From: Ostreococcus lucimarinus
Taxonomy: Eukaryota
Length of the DNA stretch: 64,000 nt
Assembly (NCBI GenBank): GCA_000092065.1
Contig: CP000584.1
Direction: 5' to 3' (one strand)
The translations under genes and the position numbers were made by a program. Below, in pieces: positions 3,746 to 42,808 of the stretch (within the stretch, counting starts at the first letter, position 1; each line of letters begins with the position of its first letter). The notes beneath the pieces were generated by a model, which saw nothing but the letters and a program-made list of their open reading frames with translations, searched no databases and had not been told where the DNA came from.

Positions 3746-4690
3746 ATGGATCGCGCGGCGGTCGCCGCCGCCGACGACGCCGCGTCGACGTCGGACGACG
3801 CGTTCGCGTACGTCGCGCGCGCGCCGTTCGAGCCGCGGCGCTTCGCCGCGCTCCTGCGCGCGAACTTTGACGTCGCGCGCTTCGGCGACGGCGGCGACGA
3901 CGTCATCGCCGGCGCCGCGCGCGACGAGGGCGCGTTCGAGGGCGCGCGCGCGGCGTCGGGCGTGGTTTGGATCGCGTCCCGGCCGAACGTGCGCGGGATC
4001 TTTAGGATGGACGACGGGGACGACGGCGTCGTCGTCGTCGCGTGCGCGGGCGCGTGGCACGAGGACGGCCGCGGCGCGTGCGAGACGCCGGCGGAGGCGA
4101 GCGAACGCGTCTTCTTCGGCGATCGAAGGCAGCACGTAGTTTTTGAAGGCCGCGATCTCGACGCGATGAAAATTAAAGCGCGATTGGACGCGTGCTTGCT
4201 GACCGAAGCCGAGGACGCGGACGAGACGAATCGCGCGAACGAGTCGTACTGCGGTTCGACGTGGCCGACGGCGACGGAGGTGATGGCGAGCGCGGGCGTG
4301 GAGGCGGTCGAGCGCGGGGTGAAACACAAGGCGTTTTACCCGAGCGGTGGCGTCGACGGCGTCGTGGCGTCGACGGCGGCGATGTCGGTGTCGACGTCGC
4401 GCGAGCGCGGCGGCGACGCGTTCCGGGACGTGCGCGTTCCGGAGGCTTTCGCGCCGCCGCTCGCGGGGCAATCAGAAAAGACGTTTCCGGACGGGCAAGT
4501 CGGGTACTTTTTTGAGGACATGCCGTGTTTGGAGTGCGGGTCGCCGTGGTGGTTCGGTGAAGACTGGGACTCGCGTTGCGCCAACTGCGGCGCCGACGAT
4601 CGCACGTACGGCGGCGATCAACGTCCGATTCGGTCAAAGCGGCGGATTTACGACGAGTTTCGCGCGGCGTGGCGTCGACTCGCTGATTGA
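3746..4690 (+). CDS. hypothetical acidic protein: CobW C-terminal-domain-like region plus a C-terminal CxxC...CxxC zinc ribbon
   Basis: ATG at 3746. The segment FAYVARAPFEPRRFAALLRANFDV...SGVVWIASRPNVRGIF...VVFEGRDLDAMKIKARLDACLL follows the CobW_C profile (F..rPF...f..lL, GvvWia, vfiG.dLd...l...L..Cl) but has no GTPase domain. The tail is CLECGSPWWFGEDWDSRCANCG. Confidence 0.45.
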   Translation: MDRAAVAAADDAASTSDDAFAYVARAPFEPRRFAALLRANFDVARFGDGGDDVIAGAARDEGAFEGARAASGVVWIASRPNVRGIFRMDDGDDGVVVVACAGAWHEDGRGACETPAEASERVFFGDRRQHVVFEGRDLDAMKIKARLDACLLTEAEDADETNRANESYCGSTWPTATEVMASAGVEAVERGVKHKAFYPSGGVDGVVASTAAMSVSTSRERGGDAFRDVRVPEAFAPPLAGQSEKTFPDGQVGYFFEDMPCLECGSPWWFGEDWDSRCANCGADDRTYGGDQRPIRSKRRIYDEFRAAWRRLAD

Positions 4691-4713
4691 ATTGTATTGA
4701 ACATTTTTAGAAA

Positions 4714-7700
4714 TTAGAAACCGACGAACTTTTCTTCGCTCGAGTTCGGCGGCGGACCGTTCATCCACGTAAACTTACCCGTCTTCGCGTCTTTGATGCT
4801 CGACAAGTCGGCTCGCGAGAGCTGTTCGGGGAGGAAATGAAGCGGGCGAAGTTTGCCGCTCATGACGGCTTCCCAGTCGATGGTTTCGTACCACGCGTGA
4901 CCCTTGATAGCGCCCAAGCCCGGCGCACGAATGCCTAAGCGGAGCGATTCGTCGCGCACGAAAATTTGCGACAACATCTCGTGCACGTCGTTGTCCATGC
5001 GTCGCGGCACGGGGACGGCGGCGAAATCCGCGCGAACGATGCGTTTGTACAAATCGCGACGCTGTCGGTCGCGAAACGGCGGAAATCCGGCGATCATTTC
5101 AAACACCAAGATACCGAACGCCCAGATATCCGCCGCGCGCGTGCATCCTTGATGCAAGATGAGCTCCGGCGCGAGGTAATCCGGCGTGCCGCAAATGGTG
5201 TACGCGCGTTGGCCTTTTTCCAACTTTTTCGCAAATCCAAAGTCACCGATCGTGATCGAGCCATCCGAGCGCAAGAGCAAGTTTTCGGGTTTCATGTCGC
5301 GATAGACATACCCGGCGCTGTGAATGTACTCCAGCCCGAGCAAGACTTGCGCGGTGTACACTTTGATTTGCCCAATGCCGGGTAATCCGCTTCTGTTGAA
5401 CAAGTCAAACATATCGCCGACGCAATCCTCGACGACGAGATATAGTGCCCATGGGTCCTGAAACGAGGCATAGTAGTTGCAAACGAACGGTGCATGGCGG
5501 AGTTCTTCTAGCGCGCGCCTTTCTGCCATACAATGCTCTTCTTCACCGTTTTCGATGACTTGCGATTTCGGCATGGTTTTAATCGCACACACCTTGCCCG
5601 AGCCCTTGTGCTTGGCGCGCAACACCAGACCGACCATGCCTTGTCCGAGGATGTCCACGACTTCGAACTCATTCAGACTCTTCGTACCTTGAAGCTCTAC
5701 GATCGTGGGACTGTGCGATCGTAGCGAGCCACTGAGCGCTGAGGAACGCTTCTCTTTAAGCGACGTCGCCGGCGGCTCGTGCAACATCGCCGTCTCCTCC
5801 GCGAGCACTGGCAAATGACCCGCTGATCCAGCTTGCGGAGACTTCTTCGCTCGTCCAAACGCGGCAAACTTCTTGCCAAAACGTAGGTGCTCGCTGGACG
5901 TTGATAACAGGTTCGATTGCGATCCGCTCGATGGCGACGGTGGCGACGGATCCAAGAACGTCGACACCGGCGCGCTGAGGTTAGGCGCGCTCGGATTCGC
6001 CGCGATCCGAAGACCAGCCAAAGCGCTGCTCGATCCTCGTTGCCGGCTCTCAGCACCTGGAATTCCGACGCCCGATTCTTCGTCGGCGCGCCTACTCGGC
6101 TCCATGTCTGCGCCGACGGAATCGACACCGATGACTTGCAAGACAAAGTTTTGCGTGCACGTCAAAATCACCGTATCCGTGAGCGCAATGTACACCCCTT
6201 GCATGGTCGTCTCTCCCGCCAAGACTTCGTCGCCGAAGTATCCACCGCTCGTGATCTTTCTGACCTTCGTCCGTCCGTTTTCCTTCATAGAGCACTCGAC
6301 TTCTCCGTCCATCACCATGAACATCTTCACTTGCATGCCTTCTCTGAAAATGACTTCACCGGCGCGGTAAGCGCGTCTACCGCGCTGCACGAGCAATTCA
6401 CTCAACGCCTCTAAACTCGCGTGTTCAAATGGCTTGAACACCGGACAATGTATGACGGCATCGTACGCCGCCTTGCGCGCCTTGGACATGACGTCTTGAA
6501 TCACCGCCGCGAAGACTTTTCGCGTGATGCCGAGCAAGACAGAATCCTCCGCGGCGACAAGCTTTGAAGGCGACGGCGTCGGTTCGGTGAGCACTTCTTC
6601 ACCCCACGTGTCACCAGACTTTAATGTCGTTCCATCCGGCACGACGTTAACTTTGCCATCAATGAGAAGGTAAAACGTATCCGCGCCTTCTCCCGCTTGT
6701 ATCACCGTGGCCCCCTCCGGGAACACCAAGCGCGTCGCCGCCTTGCTCAACGCCTCGACTAAAAGCCCGGCCAAACCGGCGTGACGCACGGCTGGAATCG
6801 AGCGAAGCGCCGATGCGAAAATATCGAGCTCCCACGATTGCGGCGGCGTCACGAGGTCGATGTATTGCGTGTTTTGAATGCCGCTTGCGCCTTCGCTCAC
6901 GCCCGGCAACGTTTGCTCCGTCGGGACGAAATCGGCGTCTCGAGGGATGGAAAATCGCTGCGAAATCGCGCGTCGATGACGCCTTAAAAGGAGAACCGAC
7001 TTAATGTACGCCAAGTCCGTCTCGCTCACCTTGCCGTGGGTCTTCATGTCCAAAAGTAAAAAACAATTTTCAACCGTGTCGCCGACGGTGAATAAATTTC
7101 CTCGAATCACGCTAATACCTCTCGCGACGCACGCGGTACAAAAATCTGCCATCAGCCCCGGTCGATCTAGCACTTGCATTTTAATCTCTGTCGCGTTTTC
7201 CACATCCTTATCGTCGAAGAGCACGCCGTGCACGCTTCGTTCCTTGGACACGAACGTTTCGTCTCGCTCCTCCTCCGCGAAGGGGCCGTACTTCTCCGTG
7301 TCCTCTGGGTCCTCCTCCGTCACCGCCTCCAGCGCGGCTTGCCTCTTCTCCGGTTTCTTCCGCACGATGTCCTCCAACTCTTGACTCACCTGCTCGCTCG
7401 ACTGTTCGCTCAATTTACACCGCGTCTCCTCCTCGCACACGTACAGCGTGTACAACACGCGTCGACTGTCCCGCACCACGTCCGCCTGCACCACGTTCAC
7501 CCCTTTCCGCGTCAAGTACGTCGCGATCTCGCTTATCAACCCAACGCGATCGGCGCACTCGATCCGTATGTACGTGTGATGCTCGTTCGCCGTGTTGCTC
7601 ACCGCCACGCGCGCCGCGTCCGCGTCGTCCGCGTTCAAAGTCGTCCCCGCGAGCTCGTCCGCCGCGTCCGCGACGCCGTCCGACCTACTCCCGCCTCGCT

Positions 7701-26806: not shown

Positions 26807-28000
26807 ATGTGTCGCGCGCGCGGCGTCGCGCGCGCCAGAGCGCGTCGACGCGCGATGACGCCCGCGACGCGCGAGGTCGCGCGCGTCCCAGCGCCCACGC
26901 GCGCGGCGCTCGACGCGTGTCGAGACGCGCGCTGGCGCGCGACGTTCGCCGCGCACGGCTTCCGCGCCGTCGCGCTCGAGGTGCCGGAAGATTTCATTCG
27001 TTACGTCCTCGCCGACGGCGTCGTCGCGCGCGAGACGGACGCCGCGATGCCGCGAAGGGTGGCGCAGGACGCGTTCGACGCGGCGGAGAGCGCGGCGCGG
27101 TTCGCGCGCGCGCGGGCGACGACGACGACGATGGAAGAGGAGGAGGCGGAGGACGCGAGCGCGCGGGACGGCGCGAGGCGAGCGACGTTCGCGGCGTTTG
27201 AACGCGCGATCGAGGACGCGATCGAAGCGCTGGGGGGAGAGGTGGCGCCGAAATTCGCGTGGAGCGCGCCGAAAGACGCGGCGTGGGTCGCGGCTGGGAA
27301 CACGATGAAGTGCCGGAACGCGGACGAGGTGGTGCTGTTGCTCAAGGCGAGCGACGCGGTGGCGCACGATTTGACCGAGGCGTACGGGGCGTGTGAGGAT
27401 TACGCGCGCGGTGATGGGAGCGAGGAGAGCGAGGAAGATCGCGCGGTGCGCGAGCACGCGGCGTCGGTGCTGACGCTTCGGGAGTGGTACGATTTGAACC
27501 CGAGCATGGAGTTTCGATGCTTCGTGAAGAATAGAAATTTAGTCGCCGCGTCGCAGCGACACGTGAACGACTTCTACGAGTTTTTGGTGCGAGACAAGGA
27601 TGCGATCGAAGACGCGATCGCTCTGTTCTGGGAGTCGAACGTCTCGTGCACGTCGTGGCACGACGATCAGGTCGATTACGTGTTCGACGTGTACGTGACG
27701 CCGAAGACGAAGAAGGTGAAAATAATTGATTTCAACGTCTGGGGCGGGACGACGCTTCCTTTGCTCTTCGAATGGCACGAACTAGAGGCCATGAATCGCG
27801 ACCGCGCGGAGGGCGACGACGCGCGCGGGTACGCGGACGAAATAGAGTTTCGCATCATCGAATCGCAGGGACACATTCGCCCCGGGCTGCAGCTCGGCGT
27901 CCCGTTTGACTTATACGACACCTCCGAGGGCGGGGCGATCTCAGAGTTCTTGGAAGAACAGCGCCGTCGACAGGAACAAGAAAGTTGCGCGAGTCTGTGA
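26807..28000 (+). CDS. CDC123: cell division cycle protein 123 (CDC123/D123)
   Basis: KFAWSAPKDAAWVAAGNTMKCRNADEVVLLLKASDAVAHDL...LREWYDLNPSMEFRCFVKNRNLVAASQR...DYVFDVYVTPKTKKVKIIDFNVWGGTTLPLLFEWHEL is colinear with human CDC123 ([41 protein letters not shown]...EFRCFVKENKLIGISQR...FVFDIY...LIDFNPFGEVTDSLLFTWEEL). ATG at 26807, alternative at 26855. The ORF-track extension back to 25817 is antisense to the SEC14 gene. Confidence 0.8.
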   Translation: MCRARGVARARARRRAMTPATREVARVPAPTRAALDACRDARWRATFAAHGFRAVALEVPEDFIRYVLADGVVARETDAAMPRRVAQDAFDAAESAARFARARATTTTMEEEEAEDASARDGARRATFAAFERAIEDAIEALGGEVAPKFAWSAPKDAAWVAAGNTMKCRNADEVVLLLKASDAVAHDLTEAYGACEDYARGDGSEESEEDRAVREHAASVLTLREWYDLNPSMEFRCFVKNRNLVAASQRHVNDFYEFLVRDKDAIEDAIALFWESNVSCTSWHDDQVDYVFDVYVTPKTKKVKIIDFNVWGGTTLPLLFEWHELEAMNRDRAEGDDARGYADEIEFRIIESQGHIRPGLQLGVPFDLYDTSEGGAISEFLEEQRRRQEQESCASL

Positions 28001-37224: not shown

Positions 37225-39156
37225 CTAAATTCGAAACGTGGCTTCGTTTGCGCGACGCCAGAGGAGCATCGAACATTCGAGCCAGTGAGGGGTTACGGCG
37301 TGCACGTTTCCTCGCGCCTTTGCCGCTTTCACCTTATCCGTCGAGCTCGCCGTGCCTACAACGTGGGTGGTGTCGTCGCAAAGTGTCCGTCCACACGTAG
37401 CGCCGAAATCTTCGGCTAAGATCCACAAAGGATGCGTCGTGGGGTCGGCGTCGATGGGGAAAACGCGGCTAAAAACGATGCGCACGTCTGCGAGTACCTT
37501 CTTGCGTTGGGCGCACAGAATTTCCTGCACCGCGCGCACGTCGCTCGCATGTTGTTTCAGTGCTCTGACTTTGTGCTTGACGTTCTTATCGTAGCCGCCG
37601 GCGAAATACGCCGAGTGGACGGATTCAAACACTTTCATCGCCGTCGAGAGCATGCCCTCATCTTCGCTTTCGTCCTGGCCGATTTCCAGCAGCGACATCC
37701 CCGATAAACCAAACTGACGTCGAGCCTGCGGGAAGAATAAATACCGCTCGCACGTGACCAAGTTTCGTCGATGCGATTCCCACACGCTCGCGGTGTCATC
37801 GAAAATCAAACAGGCGTCGGCGAGGTGTTCCAACGCGCCGTCGAGCGTCTTCTCCGCAGGCGCCCACAGCTTCCCTCCTTCCATTTCCCCGAGACCTCTT
37901 ACGGTTCCATGTATCCATCGTTTCTCGGGATCGAGTAATTCTACCATTTGATCCGCGTACGCTTGCGACCCCATGGTGTTGATGTGAATCTCAAACAAAC
38001 GCGAAGCTCGCTCGAGAAACCTTCGAACGCCAGGCCGCAACTTGGTCAACAAATCGAAATGCTGGAGATGAAAGACCGAACGCTTTAACGGGTCGTTCGC
38101 GTCCTCCGCGCGCTTGACGTCGGCATCGAGAAGACGCATCGCGTTACGTAACCAATTCGAATCCATTCGTAAATCTGGTACCAACACGCTGTTCAAAAGC
38201 GTGTGATCCAAATCCAACACCAGCGCGAGCTTTCTCGACGCAATCAAACGCTCGAGCGAGGGATGCATTTTCTTCGTCTTATCGATCGACGAGCCGGTTG
38301 ATTTTCCGAGAGAGACGTCGTCCGTAGACGCATTCGTACTCGCTTTTCGACGCCGCTTCGGCTTTCGTTTTTTGTATTGCGGGGAATTCACATTGTTCAA
38401 CAGCGTCTCATCCGCGTCGTCGCGGAGCCGTGCGATGTTTTCCATCGTGTCAAACTCACCTCCTCCCAACACCTCCCTGCTCTTCGCGGCGATCTTTTCA
38501 ATCTTCTCGAGCTTCCCTTCCGGCGTTTTCGCGTCTTCGTCGTCCACGAGCATCGCGTCGTTTGAATCGTACAGGTTGACGAGTTTCGGAAGTTCGCCAT
38601 CCTCCAACTCTTCTTCTTCGTCCGACGACTCTGGCTTTTGCACCTTTGCTTTCGATTCGGCTGCCTTCGTCGACATCGCTCGTTCCTTCGCGCTCGCTCG
38701 AACGCGCTTCTTCGACGCGCTTTTCGGCGCCCCCGCGGGCGGTTTCGGCGGTCTGGGCGGCGGCGGTTTCGGCGGTTTCGGCGGCGGCGGTTTCGGTGGT
38801 TTCGGCGGCGGCGGTTTCGGCGGAGGCAATTCATCCAACTGTCCCTCTTCCAACTCGGGCAACTTTTGGGAGCCCGCGCCGGCGAGCCCGTTCTCTTGAT
38901 TCTCTCCCTTCGTTCGCGCCGCGAACGGCGGCGGCGGCGGCGGTTGTCTCTTCGGCGGCGGCGGCGGCGGCGGCGGCGCGCGTCTCGCCGCCGTCGCTTT
39001 CGGCGGCGGCGGCGGCGGCGACGGCGACGGCGTCGAAAACAGCATCCGCGCCAGTTTTCCCGGCGTCAGCTGTCCGAGCACCGTCCCCAACCACCCGCTC
39101 GCGGGCTCGACGGTCGTCGGCGGCGCCCGCGGCGACGTCCCGCTCGATCCCGTCAT
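37225..39156 (-). CDS. FCP1: RNA polymerase II CTD phosphatase FCP1 (FCP1-homology phosphatase plus BRCT) with a proline-rich N-terminal region
   Basis: The FCPH domain is LERLIASRKLALVLDLDHTLLNSV (DxDxT)...FHLQHFDLLTKLRPGVRRFLERASRLFEIHINTMGSQAYADQMVELLDPE. The BRCT domain is KVLADVRIVFSRVFPIDADPTTHPLWILAEDFGATCGRTLCDDTTHVV. ATG at 39156 (MTGSSGTSPRAPP). The ORF-track N-terminal 240 aa (to 39876) are antisense to UBA2 and rejected. Confidence 0.7.
   Translation of the reverse strand: MTGSSGTSPRAPPTTVEPASGWLGTVLGQLTPGKLARMLFSTPSPSPPPPPPKATAARRAPPPPPPPPKRQPPPPPPFAARTKGENQENGLAGAGSQKLPELEEGQLDELPPPKPPPPKPPKPPPPKPPKPPPPRPPKPPAGAPKSASKKRVRASAKERAMSTKAAESKAKVQKPESSDEEEELEDGELPKLVNLYDSNDAMLVDDEDAKTPEGKLEKIEKIAAKSREVLGGGEFDTMENIARLRDDADETLLNNVNSPQYKKRKPKRRRKASTNASTDDVSLGKSTGSSIDKTKKMHPSLERLIASRKLALVLDLDHTLLNSVLVPDLRMDSNWLRNAMRLLDADVKRAEDANDPLKRSVFHLQHFDLLTKLRPGVRRFLERASRLFEIHINTMGSQAYADQMVELLDPEKRWIHGTVRGLGEMEGGKLWAPAEKTLDGALEHLADACLIFDDTASVWESHRRNLVTCERYLFFPQARRQFGLSGMSLLEIGQDESEDEGMLSTAMKVFESVHSAYFAGGYDKNVKHKVRALKQHASDVRAVQEILCAQRKKVLADVRIVFSRVFPIDADPTTHPLWILAEDFGATCGRTLCDDTTHVVGTASSTDKVKAAKARGNVHAVTPHWLECSMLLWRRANEATFRI
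38739..38829. repeat. imperfect 9-bp tandem repeat (GGCGGTTTC/GGCGGCGGC)n encoding a (PPKPP)n polyproline tract of FCP1
   Basis: gggcggtttcggcggtctgggcggcggcggtttcggcggtttcggcggcggcggtttcggtggtttcggcggcggcggtttcggcgg; the minus strand translates to PPKPPPPKPPKPPPPKPPKPPPPRPPKPP. Confidence 0.6.
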
Positions 39157-39345
39157 CGCGCGTTTCACCGTCGTCGCATCGCCGATCGCCGCGCGTCCCG
39201 CGCGCGTCGTCGTCGGTGACGACGCGTCGGCCAGTGCTGTCCCGAGCGCGTCCCGACGAACGACCGCAGACGTCGGCGCGCGCGCCCGCGACGACGCGCG
39301 TCGCGCGCGATCGCGCGGTGAGTCGACTTTCGACGCGGGGCGACG

Positions 39346-41094
39346 ATGCACATCGATCGCGACGTCGTGGAGAACGCCAAGGTGCTCATGGTGGGCGCCG
39401 GGGGCATCGGGTGTGAACTTTTGAAAACGCTCGTCTTGCACGGATTTCGAGACGTCACGGCGATCGATTTGGACACCATCGACGTGTCGAATTTGAACAG
39501 GCAGTTTTTGTTCAGGCGGCGGCACGTGGGGATGGCGAAGAGCGAGGTGGCGAGGGAGTCGGTGTTGAAGTTTAGACCAGAAGCGAAGATTTCGGCGCTG
39601 CGAGCGAACGTGAAGGAGGCGAGATTCGATAAGGAGTATTTTAAGGGGTTCGACGTCGTGTTGAATGGATTGGATAACTTGGAGGCTCGACGACACGTCA
39701 ATCGGTTGTGTCTCGCGGCGGAAGTGCCGCTCGTGGAGAGTGGGACGACTGGATATAAAGGGCAAGTCACCGTGCACGCGCGCAAACAATGCGCGTGCTT
39801 TGAGTGCACGGAGAAGCCGACGCCGAAGAGTTATCCGATCTGTACGCTGAGGGATACGCCGGACAAACCGATTCATTGCATCGTGTACGCAAAAGAGCTT
39901 TTATTCAGCAAACTGTTCGGCGATGCGAGCGTGCAGAGCGATTTAGATGAGGAGGACGCGGTGGAAGCCGGGGCGTTTCGCCGAAACGAAGGAGAGTCCG
40001 GCGTGGATTTCGCCAAACGCGTTTTTGCGTACGTTTTCGGGTCAAAGATCGAGGGTTTGCTGCTGAAGGATGACATGTGGAAGACGAGATCCAGACCGAA
40101 ACCGCTGAAATCGGCGGACGTAGGCTTAGATTGCGAGTTTGTGGAGACCGATTCATCGGCGTCGAGTGCGCGACGAGCGCATGGTCTGATGGATCCCCAC
40201 GTGGTTTGGTCCCCGACCGAGTGCGCGAAGGTGTTTGTGAGCGCCACAGCCCGACTTGTAGAGCGCGAGCGCCCGATTGAGTTCGACAAGGACGACGACG
40301 ACGCCGTGGAATTCGTTACGGCGGTGAGTAATTTGCGCTCGGTGAATTACGGTATTCCTCCGCAAAGCGTATTCGACGCCAAGGGTATGGCTGGAAACAT
40401 CATCCACGCCGTCGCGACGACCAACGCGATCGTATCCGGTCTCATCGTCATAGAGGCGATCAAGATTCTTCATAAAAGAATGGACCAAACCCGGTACACG
40501 TTCGTCCTCGAGCACGCGAGCAACGGACGTTTGCTGCAACCCATGTCGAAAGACGACCCGAATCCAAAGTGTGCAGTTTGCGGGAACGCACGCGTGGAAT
40601 TAGTGTGCGACACCACAAAGTTCACGAAGGGCGACCTAGTGAAGCGCGTGCTCAAGGGGAAGTTCAGCGTGAACGAGCCCACCGTGCAGTTTGGTGGGAA
40701 CCTCCTTCACGAGACGGGCGAGGATTTAGACGAAGACGAGGTGGAGCACTACGCTTCGCTCGACCCGCGCACCTTAGACAAGCTCCCGGGCGGTGGCGTC
40801 GTGAACGGGACTATTTTACTCATCGAGGATTACTCGCAAGATTTCAAGTTTGAGCTCATGGTGACCCACCGCGAAGATTGGGACGATGAGAAGGAGCCGG
40901 ACGGTTTCATCGTGCGCGGCGAAGACGTCAAGGCGCGAGAGGCTGAGGAAGCCACGGACGCGGGCGCCGACGACGCCATCGTCGACGACGAACTATTAAT
41001 CGTCGACGACGACGTCGAAATCACGGACGCGACCGCTAAGCGAAAACGAGTCGACGAATCGCTAGCCTCGACGGCCAAGGCGCCCAAGCGGTGA
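39346..41094 (+). CDS. UBA2: SUMO-activating enzyme subunit 2 (UBA2/SAE2)
   Basis: [64 protein letters not shown] is near-identical to human SAE2 ([64 protein letters not shown]). The catalytic C at PICTLR and a CxxC...CxxC zinc motif ([13 protein letters not shown]) are present. ATG at 39346. Confidence 0.9.
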   Translation: [582 protein letters not shown]

Positions 41095-41157: not shown

Positions 41158-41769
41158 TCACGGATACGCCGCGTTCGCCTTATCCGCCGCCGCCATCTCC
41201 TCTCGCTCCACCAACGCGTCGTAATCCTCCTCGTCCATCAGCGTCGCCGTCGATCCGCTCTCCGCCTCCACCTCCGCCAGCCACGTCTCCGGTCCTCGCA
41301 CGTTCATGTACGGATCCCGCAGCGCCTCCATGTTGTACCGCACCACCTTCACATCGAACGGCGCCGCGATCTCTCTCGTCCCGCTCGCGTTCGCCCATCG
41401 CGAGTGATACAGCTCGTCGCCCGCCGTGCGCGTGAACCCGCTCCAGTGCACCCTCGCGAGCGTCTCCCCCTTCGCCACCGTCTCCCCGCTCGCGCGCGTC
41501 GGCTCCACGCGCGTCGCGTCACCGATCAATTCAAACGCGTACGCGCTCATTCCCACCGCGTACGTCGACCTCGCCCCGTGCGCGTGCGCGCAGTTGACGA
41601 TTTCGTGCGTCGACGTGAACCGAGGCGGTGACGTCGCCGCGGCGTCGCAGCACCCGCGCGCGTCTCCGTCGTGGTTTCCGCGCGTCGCGCGACGCGGCGC
41701 GACGGCGCGCGCATCGCTCGACCGCCTCGACGCGACGTCGCGCGCGAGGCGCGCGAGCGCGCGTCGCAT
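41158..41769 (-). CDS. glycine-cleavage-system H-protein-like (lipoyl-attachment fold) protein lacking the lipoyl-lysine, with an organellar presequence
   Basis: RFTSTHEIV...VGMSAYAFELIGDATRVEPTRASGETVAKGETLARVHWSG...DPYMNVRGPETWLAEVEAESGSTATLMDEEDYDALV aligns with GcvH (KFTEKHEWV...VGISNFAQEALGDVVY...GALESVKAAS...[31 protein letters not shown]). The lipoyl-Lys position (ESVKA) reads VHWSG. ATG at 41769, alternative at 41811. Confidence 0.6.
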   Translation of the reverse strand: MRRALARLARDVASRRSSDARAVAPRRATRGNHDGDARGCCDAAATSPPRFTSTHEIVNCAHAHGARSTYAVGMSAYAFELIGDATRVEPTRASGETVAKGETLARVHWSGFTRTAGDELYHSRWANASGTREIAAPFDVKVVRYNMEALRDPYMNVRGPETWLAEVEAESGSTATLMDEEDYDALVEREEMAAADKANAAYP

Positions 41770-41809
41770 GCGTCGCGTTCTCGCGACGCGCGTCCGCAGC
41801 GCCCGCAGC

Positions 41810-42808
41810 ATGCGACGCGCGCTCGCGCGAGACCGGCGTCGCGCCGTCGGGTCGCGCGACTTCGCGCGCGACCTCGCGCGCGACCTCGCGCGCGAATCGC
41901 GGCGCGCGCGAGGACGCGGCGCGCGCGCGCGCGCGTGGTGGACGTTCGTCGCGGCGTCGGCGTGCGCGTGGGCGCTGACGCGGCGCGCGCGCGAGCGCGA
42001 CGACGCGCGCGCGAACGACGCGCCGAGCGATGCGTTTTGCGCGCGCGCGCGCGATCCCATGGTGTGCGCGCACGGCGGAGAGGTGCTGGAGGGGGAGATG
42101 GCCAACGCCAGGACGGCGCTGGAGCGCGCGGCGCGAGCGGGACACGCGTGCGTGGAGATCGACGTGCAGCGCACGAACGATGGCGCGCTGGTGGCGCTGC
42201 ACGCGCGCGATGTGAAGCGGTACACTCGAGGGGACATCGGAGCGGTGGGAGAGGTGAGCCGGGCGGAGTTGGAGATGTGGAACGAGGGCGACGCGGCGGC
42301 GCTCGATTTCGCGGCGGCGCTCGAAGTCGCGCGACGCGCGAAATTCAAACAAATCACAGTGGATTTCAAGGAAAACGCGCCGTTAGGGCGCGAAGGTCTG
42401 GCGCGGGAGACCGTGGAGGTGGTGCGGTCGATGCGGTGCGACGAGTGCTTGATGTGGGGGAAGGACGACGAGACGATTCGAGAGGCGTTGCGGTTGGGCG
42501 CGCCGCGAGTGGGCTACGTCGTCGCGAATTTCTCTCTCGAAATGCGCGCGAAAGGGTACGATAGATTGACCCGAGGTCGCGTCAGAGGTGCGCACGCGGT
42601 CGCGATACAATCTGAGATGGTGACGCGAGATCTCGTGCGCCGCGCGAGGCGCGCAAAACTAGACGTGCACGTGTGGACGGTGAACGACGACGAAAGGATG
42701 CGTCGTTTTCTCAACTACGGCGTCGATGGCATTCTCACCGACCGCCCGACGCGGCTGAAGGAAACAATAGCCGACTTTCGCGCGCGCTGCGGAAGGGAAC
42801 AGCTCTAG
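41810..42808 (+). CDS. glycerophosphodiester phosphodiesterase (GDPD/UgpQ family) with an N-terminal TM anchor
   Basis: MVCAHGGEVLEGEMANARTALERAARAGHACVEIDVQRTNDGALVALHARDV...RVGYVVANF...KLDVHVWTVNDDERMRRFLNYGVDGILTDRP contains the GDPD HR(G), E.D and H motifs. The TM is WWTFVAASACAWALT. ATG at 41810, alternative at 41768; both lie in GCATGC palindromes shared with the divergent gene. Confidence 0.75.
   Translation: MRRALARDRRRAVGSRDFARDLARDLARESRRARGRGARARAWWTFVAASACAWALTRRARERDDARANDAPSDAFCARARDPMVCAHGGEVLEGEMANARTALERAARAGHACVEIDVQRTNDGALVALHARDVKRYTRGDIGAVGEVSRAELEMWNEGDAAALDFAAALEVARRAKFKQITVDFKENAPLGREGLARETVEVVRSMRCDECLMWGKDDETIREALRLGAPRVGYVVANFSLEMRAKGYDRLTRGRVRGAHAVAIQSEMVTRDLVRRARRAKLDVHVWTVNDDERMRRFLNYGVDGILTDRPTRLKETIADFRARCGREQL

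Follow-up and report, generated by a model that had tools for sequence, protein, structure and literature searches.

Glycine cleavage and photorespiration center on the H-protein, as does protein lipoylation in eukaryotes, and its lipoyl-lysine is needed for aminomethyl shuttling in the glycine cleavage system. The BADC proteins of plants, which are biotin-less paralogues of BCCP, bind their enzyme complex as non-catalytic regulators. Simiate, also called Abitram, has been reported as a lysine-less, GCSH-derived protein present in plants and protists, and is a eukaryote-only H-protein derivative that no longer has the lipoyl-lysine and functions independently of lipoate (PMC3859600). GcvH-L, which is linked to SirTM and a macrodomain, and LbpA, which belongs to Hdr-like sulfur oxidation, are prokaryotic and operon-linked (PMC4518038, PMC6067878), and both retain a lipoyl-lysine on which they depend. 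In this study, a minus-strand gene at 41158-41811 of a 64,000-nucleotide stretch of Ostreococcus lucimarinus DNA (contig CP000584.1; the whole stretch is called the window hereafter) was compared with these relatives. Our analysis suggested that its product belongs to a new family of H-protein paralogues with a cofactor-less finger bearing the motif D-E-L-Y-H (the DELYH family); the structural and evolutionary pattern, as read from sequences and a predicted model, is clear, and the function is one that we infer.

The first-pass annotation of this DNA had described the product as a GcvH homologue with good alignment at both ends, and the profile searches agreed. Pfam GCV_H (PF01597) matched with an E value of 5.6e-6 and 26.7 bits, above its gathering score of 22.2. 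NCBIfam PRK01202 matched with an E value of 1.1e-8 and 34.9 bits, below its cut-off of 117, and the TIGR00527 equivalog model gave 29.8 bits, below its curated cut-off of 115.85. A profile built from the family alignment (68 sequences, only 20-35% identical to the window protein outside the finger) matched every GcvH chain in the PDB, with E values down to 1e-17. Both end blocks were present, as RFTSTHEIV at residues 64-72 and as the C-terminal W-L...LMDEEDY, and AlphaFold2, run with the family alignment, returned the H-protein three-dimensional fold with a mean predicted local distance difference test score (pLDDT) of 86, reaching 90-98 across residues 61-210. Judged by these profile matches and this model, the window protein is a true H-protein homologue with a complete H-protein fold, the core of which (residues 63-204) is encoded at 41200-41625 on the minus strand. 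When the E. coli and pea H-proteins were used as tblastn queries (approximate sequences), the gene went undetected at E<10, which shows the extent of its divergence, and no canonical H gene of the window was detected with them. Compared with GcvH/GCSH, the protein differs in having no lipoyl-lysine, in carrying a DELYH finger of about 20 residues in place of the E-S-V-K-A turn, in its C-terminal tail and in scoring below the equivalog cut-off, and its family differs in turning up in eukaryotes only.

The window protein has no lysine between K113 and K155. Hidden Markov model (HMM) alignments to GcvH broke into two blocks with 17-18 unmatched residues between them (profile positions 82-98), and the canonical lysine fell on Ser143 (41383-41385, minus strand), a column that held E24, S18, T7, N6 and K4 across the 68 sequences. 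Within columns 118-150, lysine never occurred in more than 13 of the 68, and no conserved lysine column was found in the hairpin. The earlier claim that the lipoyl-lysine is absent was therefore confirmed by the profile alignment to PF01597, which placed Ser143 at that position. The lysine of VAKGETL (K113; 41473-41475, minus strand), which had been named as a possible lipoylation site that would overturn this claim, did not prove to be one. The model places it away from the hairpin tip, in the loop that leads into strand 117-128, and a comparison with an approximate E. coli GcvH sequence puts it about 11 residues upstream of the canonical position. Its column (A25, K13, P11, R10) is not conserved, with Arg in most Mamiellophyceae orthologues.

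It follows from established biochemistry that a protein without this lysine cannot be lipoylated and can act neither as an aminomethyl or lipoyl shuttle nor as a lipoyl-relay donor. The first reading of the sequence had correctly concluded that such a protein cannot shuttle in glycine decarboxylation; its further suggestion of a role in a lipoyl relay is excluded, as the relay needs the same lysine, and a regulatory pseudo-H-protein, which it had also proposed, is still a candidate. Coupling to the P-, T- and L-proteins in an aminomethyl shuttle would also be implausible, because the lysine is absent from the sequence.

In the AlphaFold2 model, strands 117-128 and 139-149 formed one long beta-hairpin, the finger having pLDDT values of 90-95. 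Its tip, residues 129-138 (TAGDELYHSR), was modeled with a short helical turn in it (helix 134-136). VHWSG (121-125) and the HMM-aligned ANASG (140-144) faced each other at the base of the modeled hairpin, where a normal H-protein has its lysine turn. It had been proposed that VHWSG replaces ESVKA and that an insertion follows it; the insertion was real, corresponding to the 17-18 unmatched residues, but the layout was not as described, since VHWSG and ANASG are facing strands of one hairpin. Beyond the site of the lysine turn, the predicted hairpin ran for about 5 further residues per strand and ended in the ten-residue tip. The HMM gap and the model together indicated that a rigid beta-hairpin finger of about 20 residues (residues 123-144, W-S-G-F-T-R-T-A-G-D-E-L-Y-H-S-R-W-A-N-A-S-G; 41380-41445, minus strand) has taken over the lysine turn. 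From the strand lengths, the finger would protrude by roughly 15-25 Å, about as far as a lipoyl-lysine arm can reach.

Across the family alignment, no part of the protein is as conserved as the insertion, a point absent from the first-pass annotation. At the finger tip (D-E-L-Y-H, residues 132-136; 41404-41418, minus strand; codons GAC GAG CTG TAT CAC), D132, E133, Y135 and H136 were present in 68/68 aligned members and L134 in 65/68. Near-invariant positions elsewhere in the same alignment were W123 (67), W139 (64), G144 (64), P151 (67) and G97 (67), and position 129 was Thr or Ser in 67/68. The resulting T/S-x-x-D pattern reads as a probable helix N-capping box, which would provide a structural reason for the conservation of residue 129. 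The conserved residues specific to the family were W123, G125, T/S129, D132-H136, W139, N141 and G144. The remaining ones (H69, G97-D98, P151, W177-L178 and Y197) were ordinary determinants of the H-protein fold, which leaves the finger as the site of the constraint specific to the family. A reading of D-E-L-Y-H-x-V as an LC3-interacting region or Atg8-interacting motif (LIR/AIM), or as a YxxΦ signal, was ruled out, as position 138 is Arg in Mamiellophyceae.

The family was defined by the H-fold together with the motif W-x-[GA]-x3-[TS]-x2-D-E-L-Y-H-x2-W-x4-G at the lysine turn; window residues 123-144 fit this motif, and the window protein served as seed when the family was searched for. With 1.84 billion representatives searched exhaustively by HMM, 273 clusters (50% identity) reached E <= 1e-3, and 96 of them E <= 1e-10. 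Among the 150 representatives listed of these 273, D-E-[LMI]-Y-H was found in all but four, namely three short fragments and P0149, a 401-aa low-complexity match. A search limited to the 56-residue finger region gave one match only. Named members from the green lineage were Ostreococcus tauri (XP_022838770, annotated only as 'Single hybrid motif'), Cymbomonas tetramitiformis and Pyramimonas; the others were the raphidophyte Chattonella subsalsa and the diatoms Chaetoceros, Leptocylindrus and a Bacillariaceae metagenome-assembled genome. Every named member was a marine alga, and the remainder were marine metagenome or transcriptome sequences, for which cluster look-ups of the unnamed subgroups returned environmental sequences only, without taxonomy. 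Several members came from MMETSP transcriptomes, and family members are therefore expressed.

The contigs that carry family members also carry eukaryotic genes. A strict DNA-pattern scan for W-x-G-x6-DELYH-x2-W gave no match in the genomes of 185,579 species of bacteria and archaea, and a relaxed scan of the same genomes gave 73 loci, close to the chance estimate, none of which exceeded 17 bits against the family HMM in hmmsearch. No relative was found in IMG/VR. No land-plant, animal or fungal name appeared among the matches, in searches that were not designed to prove absence from those groups. The distribution of the lysine-less form, as far as sequence matches define it, is thus that of a eukaryote-only family that spans distant algal lineages and is so far seen in marine algae only. 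This also separates the window protein from GcvH-L and LbpA, from which it differs in having no lysine and in belonging to a family unseen in prokaryotic species genomes.

We found no description in the literature of the DELYH family or of a lysine-less algal H-protein. Database labels for its members were 'Single hybrid motif', 'hypothetical protein' or 'glycine cleavage system H lipoate-binding protein', the last being the JGI/IMG automatic label on the lysine-less P0001, P0006, P0093, P0110, P0172-P0185, P0251 and P0252. This is likely a systematic mis-annotation in marine metagenomes.

The C-terminal end of the protein also varied between subgroups. In the window protein, an extension past the canonical H-protein (residues 205-217, ...AADKANAAYP) is encoded at 41161-41199 on the minus strand, and the model placed a C-terminal helix at 194-214. 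The tail A-D-x-A-N-x-x-Y-P was invariant in 8 Mamiellophyceae sequences. Read from P0043, P0052, P0058, P0063, P0079, P0101 and the diatom members, the tails ended in ...A-N-x-x-Y-P in the green lineage, in ...(E)SLSYTSYG in one environmental group and in G-x-F-x-[ED] in diatoms and others. Such subgroup-specific conservation suggests a second, lineage-specific interaction element, as far as can be judged from the sequences.

The reading frame as first described, 41158-41811 on the minus strand, is uninterrupted, with 217 codons and a TGA stop at 41158-41160. A JGI/ENA protein, P0001, was 99% identical and P0002 was 87% identical, both from marine metagenomes, and five other orthologues were 50-63% identical to the window protein. 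The window has a GC content of 56-70% and carries eukaryotic genes. We conclude that 41158-41811 is a real, conserved nuclear gene of a green picoalga. Its true start is probably Met15 (41769) and not the ATG at 41811 proposed earlier, because an MRRA start is common to the orthologues P0001, P0002, P0006 and P0008; the JGI gene call on contig L001 begins there too. The probable coding sequence is therefore 41158-41769 on the minus strand, with 203 aa and a stop.

The reading that we favor, at about even chances of being right, is by analogy that of a binding or regulatory module that works independently of lipoate and has the finger tip as its working surface, acting as a non-catalytic adaptor or regulator that docks to a partner enzyme. 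The H-protein body would be kept as a scaffold in a lipoate-independent paralogue, and the tip ([TS]-x-x-D-E-L-Y-H) would be presented at the site where carriers of the superfamily present their swinging arm. It would most likely dock onto or into a partner enzyme, much as biotin-less BADC does on acetyl-CoA carboxylase. The likeness to BADC would extend to membership of the same 'single hybrid motif' superfamily and to loss of the cofactor lysine in a protein that is nevertheless conserved; BADC differs in belonging to the biotinyl-domain branch and not to the H-protein branch, and in having no extended finger. For the Mamiellophyceae proteins of the family, the site of action would probably be an organelle, and a mitochondrion is more likely than a plastid.

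The organellar site was considered from the N-terminal extension (residues 1-62; 41626-41811, minus strand), which was modeled with low confidence (pLDDT 49-76). Some 48-62 residues precede the fold and are presequence-like, being Arg/Ala-rich (17 Arg and 14 Ala in 63 residues) with no acidic residue among the first 24, and an extension is present in Mamiellophyceae members as well. The proposal of an organellar presequence in the first-pass annotation can be kept as plausible for the window protein, where it would be mitochondrial-looking. Several observations, on this extension and on the protein as a whole, weigh against parts of the proposed function. The length of the extension varies among orthologues, with only 17-34 residues in the O. 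tauri models, and it is encoded within a CG-rich low-complexity tract (41679-42013) that would by itself yield Arg and Ala codons; both weaken the presequence reading. In diatom members, about 12-20 residues precede the fold and a signal peptide is absent, so that an organellar location may not hold across the family; the missing signal peptide argues against the plastid in diatoms and would leave the mitochondrion or the cytosol. A beta-hairpin is far wider than a lipoyl-lysine chain, so the finger would have no canonical entry into the narrow arm tunnels of the P- or T-protein. The invariant Asp, Glu, Tyr and His could equally mean chemistry, such as metal binding or modification, as docking. 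The neighboring genes (UBA2, GDPD and FCP1-like; coordinates are given below) represent class-level synteny and offer no functional lead. Lastly, the case for a separate canonical GCSH in the same genome comes solely from a report that O. tauri, O. lucimarinus and M. pusilla each have one T-protein gene (PMC6451014). Such a gene would point to a functioning glycine cleavage system, and through it to a canonical H-protein in the genome.

In other readings, the tip would be more than a docking surface. It is possible, if unlikely, that the DELYH finger represents an arm of a new type, built from protein in place of the lipoyl arm and entering partner active sites, or else serving as the attachment site of a new cofactor or modification; if true, such proteins would form a new class of hybrid-motif carriers or effectors, restricted to marine phytoplankton. 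Closely related, and unlikely as well, is that the protein carries another covalent group, with Thr/Ser129, Tyr135 or His136 bearing a prosthetic group or regulatory modification at the position of a lipoyl- or biotinyl-lysine. The invariant residues do sit at the tip of the hairpin that bears the swinging arm in all other superfamily members, and a hydroxyl residue occupies position 129 in nearly every sequence. However, no attaching enzyme was found, nor any precedent for such a modification on an H-fold, and the T/S-x-x-D pattern would fit a plain helix N-capping box. One further point for a covalent group came from P0080 (contig L002, 4001-5737), a 578-aa single open reading frame on a marine eukaryotic contig in which an N-domain of about 440 aa is fused to a DELYH H-like domain. 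The N-domain contains two Rossmann-type motifs with weak FAD/NAD(P)-binding matches and is flavoprotein-like, and no homologue of it was found in the window or in other family members. As a single case among more than 280 sequences with an N-domain of unidentifiable family, the fusion was set aside as evidence for a partner and kept as a lead. A metal-binding or redox protein, in which D132, E133 and H136 would be ligands of the (D/E)-E-x-x-H type, perhaps completed by dimerization, and Tyr135 might be redox-active, seemed distinctly unlikely. Consistent with it are an invariant D-E-x-x-H on a short helix, accompanied by a neighboring Tyr, and the restriction of named members to marine phytoplankton, but each chain has a single short motif and no second conserved ligand cluster, and no metalloprotein similarity was found, so that the idea is purely one of motif resemblance.

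Two further readings concern the identity of the gene. We consider it highly improbable that Abitram/Simiate (FAM206A), the eukaryotic cytosolic/nuclear protein that derives from GCSH and has no lipoyl-lysine, has its algal orthologue in the window protein. The two are both eukaryote-only H-fold proteins without lipoyl-lysine, with similarly low Pfam GCV_H scores (28 bits for an approximate human Abitram sequence and 26.7 for the window protein). However, hhalign of this approximate Abitram sequence against the family profile gave a probability of 22.5%, for the C-terminal half alone (61 columns), and it has no DELYH; Abitram/Simiate, for its part, is described as a cytosolic/nuclear protein, and the presequence-like extension at the N-terminus of the window protein is missing from it. 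On these sequence comparisons, in which the Abitram sequence was approximate, the DELYH family and Abitram/Simiate are treated as separate H-protein offshoots. The last reading, a decaying H pseudogene, a spurious open reading frame of a GC-rich genome or a canonical H-protein with a misaligned lysine, is scarcely credible. GC-rich DNA gives many long open reading frames, several of which overlap this locus, and canonical H-proteins miss the gene by BLAST. The conservation data refuted it, as orthologues at 50-99% identity were found together with a 273-cluster family with an invariant motif, and transcriptome members, a confident fold prediction and the lack of a conserved hairpin lysine stand against it in the same way.

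Genetic work is feasible in O. tauri and diatoms, which makes the adaptor or regulator reading directly testable. Retention of the fold in a conserved paralogue whose cofactor turn is swapped for an invariant finger implies an undescribed, lipoate-independent function, a pattern that would surprise specialists in lipoate or photorespiration biology. The organisms that carry it are ecologically dominant marine algae, including Micromonas, Ostreococcus and other prasinophytes, diatoms and a raphidophyte. The 'lipoate-binding' label would mislead metagenome reconstructions of photorespiration and one-carbon metabolism.

The H-like gene lies between two plus-strand genes. The SUMO-activating enzyme (SUMO-E1) subunit UBA2 (39346-41094, plus strand) is tail-to-tail with it, a GDPD phosphodiesterase (41810-42808, plus strand) is head-to-head with it, and an FCP1-like phosphatase is encoded at 37225-39876 on the minus strand. 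UBA2 was tail-to-tail with the H-like gene in 4/4 Mamiellophyceae contigs (L001, L003, L004 and L005), and the arrangement held even on a Bathycoccus-like contig whose H-like protein is only about 28% identical. A functional link to UBA2 was considered and put aside, as the arrangement is probably class-level microsynteny. The predicted GDPD start (ATG 41810, plus strand) and the first-described start of the H-like gene (ATG 41811, minus strand) overlap in a CATG palindrome (41806-41813). Both 5' ends lie in the CG-rich tract, so both genes start with MRRAL-type Arg/Ala-rich peptides; the tract spans 335 bp and includes 3.6 copies of CGCGCGACCTCG at 41853-41895.

Just before the H-fold, a Cys-Cys pair occurs at window-protein residues 54-55 (about 41647-41652, minus strand). 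It appears in the motifs GCCDAAA / SSCCDG / SDCCRE and is kept in Micromonas-like and some other Mamiellophyceae orthologues (P0002, P0004, P0006 and P0009), and it is absent from the Ostreococcus orthologues compared. On another contig (L006), a PhoD-like phosphatase gene (4275-5687) begins 3 nt after the DELYH gene (3826-4272) on the same strand. This contig and L007 represent an ultra-compact environmental eukaryote in which genes near the DELYH gene encode RING and PX domains. Elsewhere in the window, a tRNA-Ala(CGC) was called at 26822-26909 (minus strand); at 88 nt it is above the standard tRNA length and may hold an intron, and it sits within long GC-driven open reading frames on both strands.

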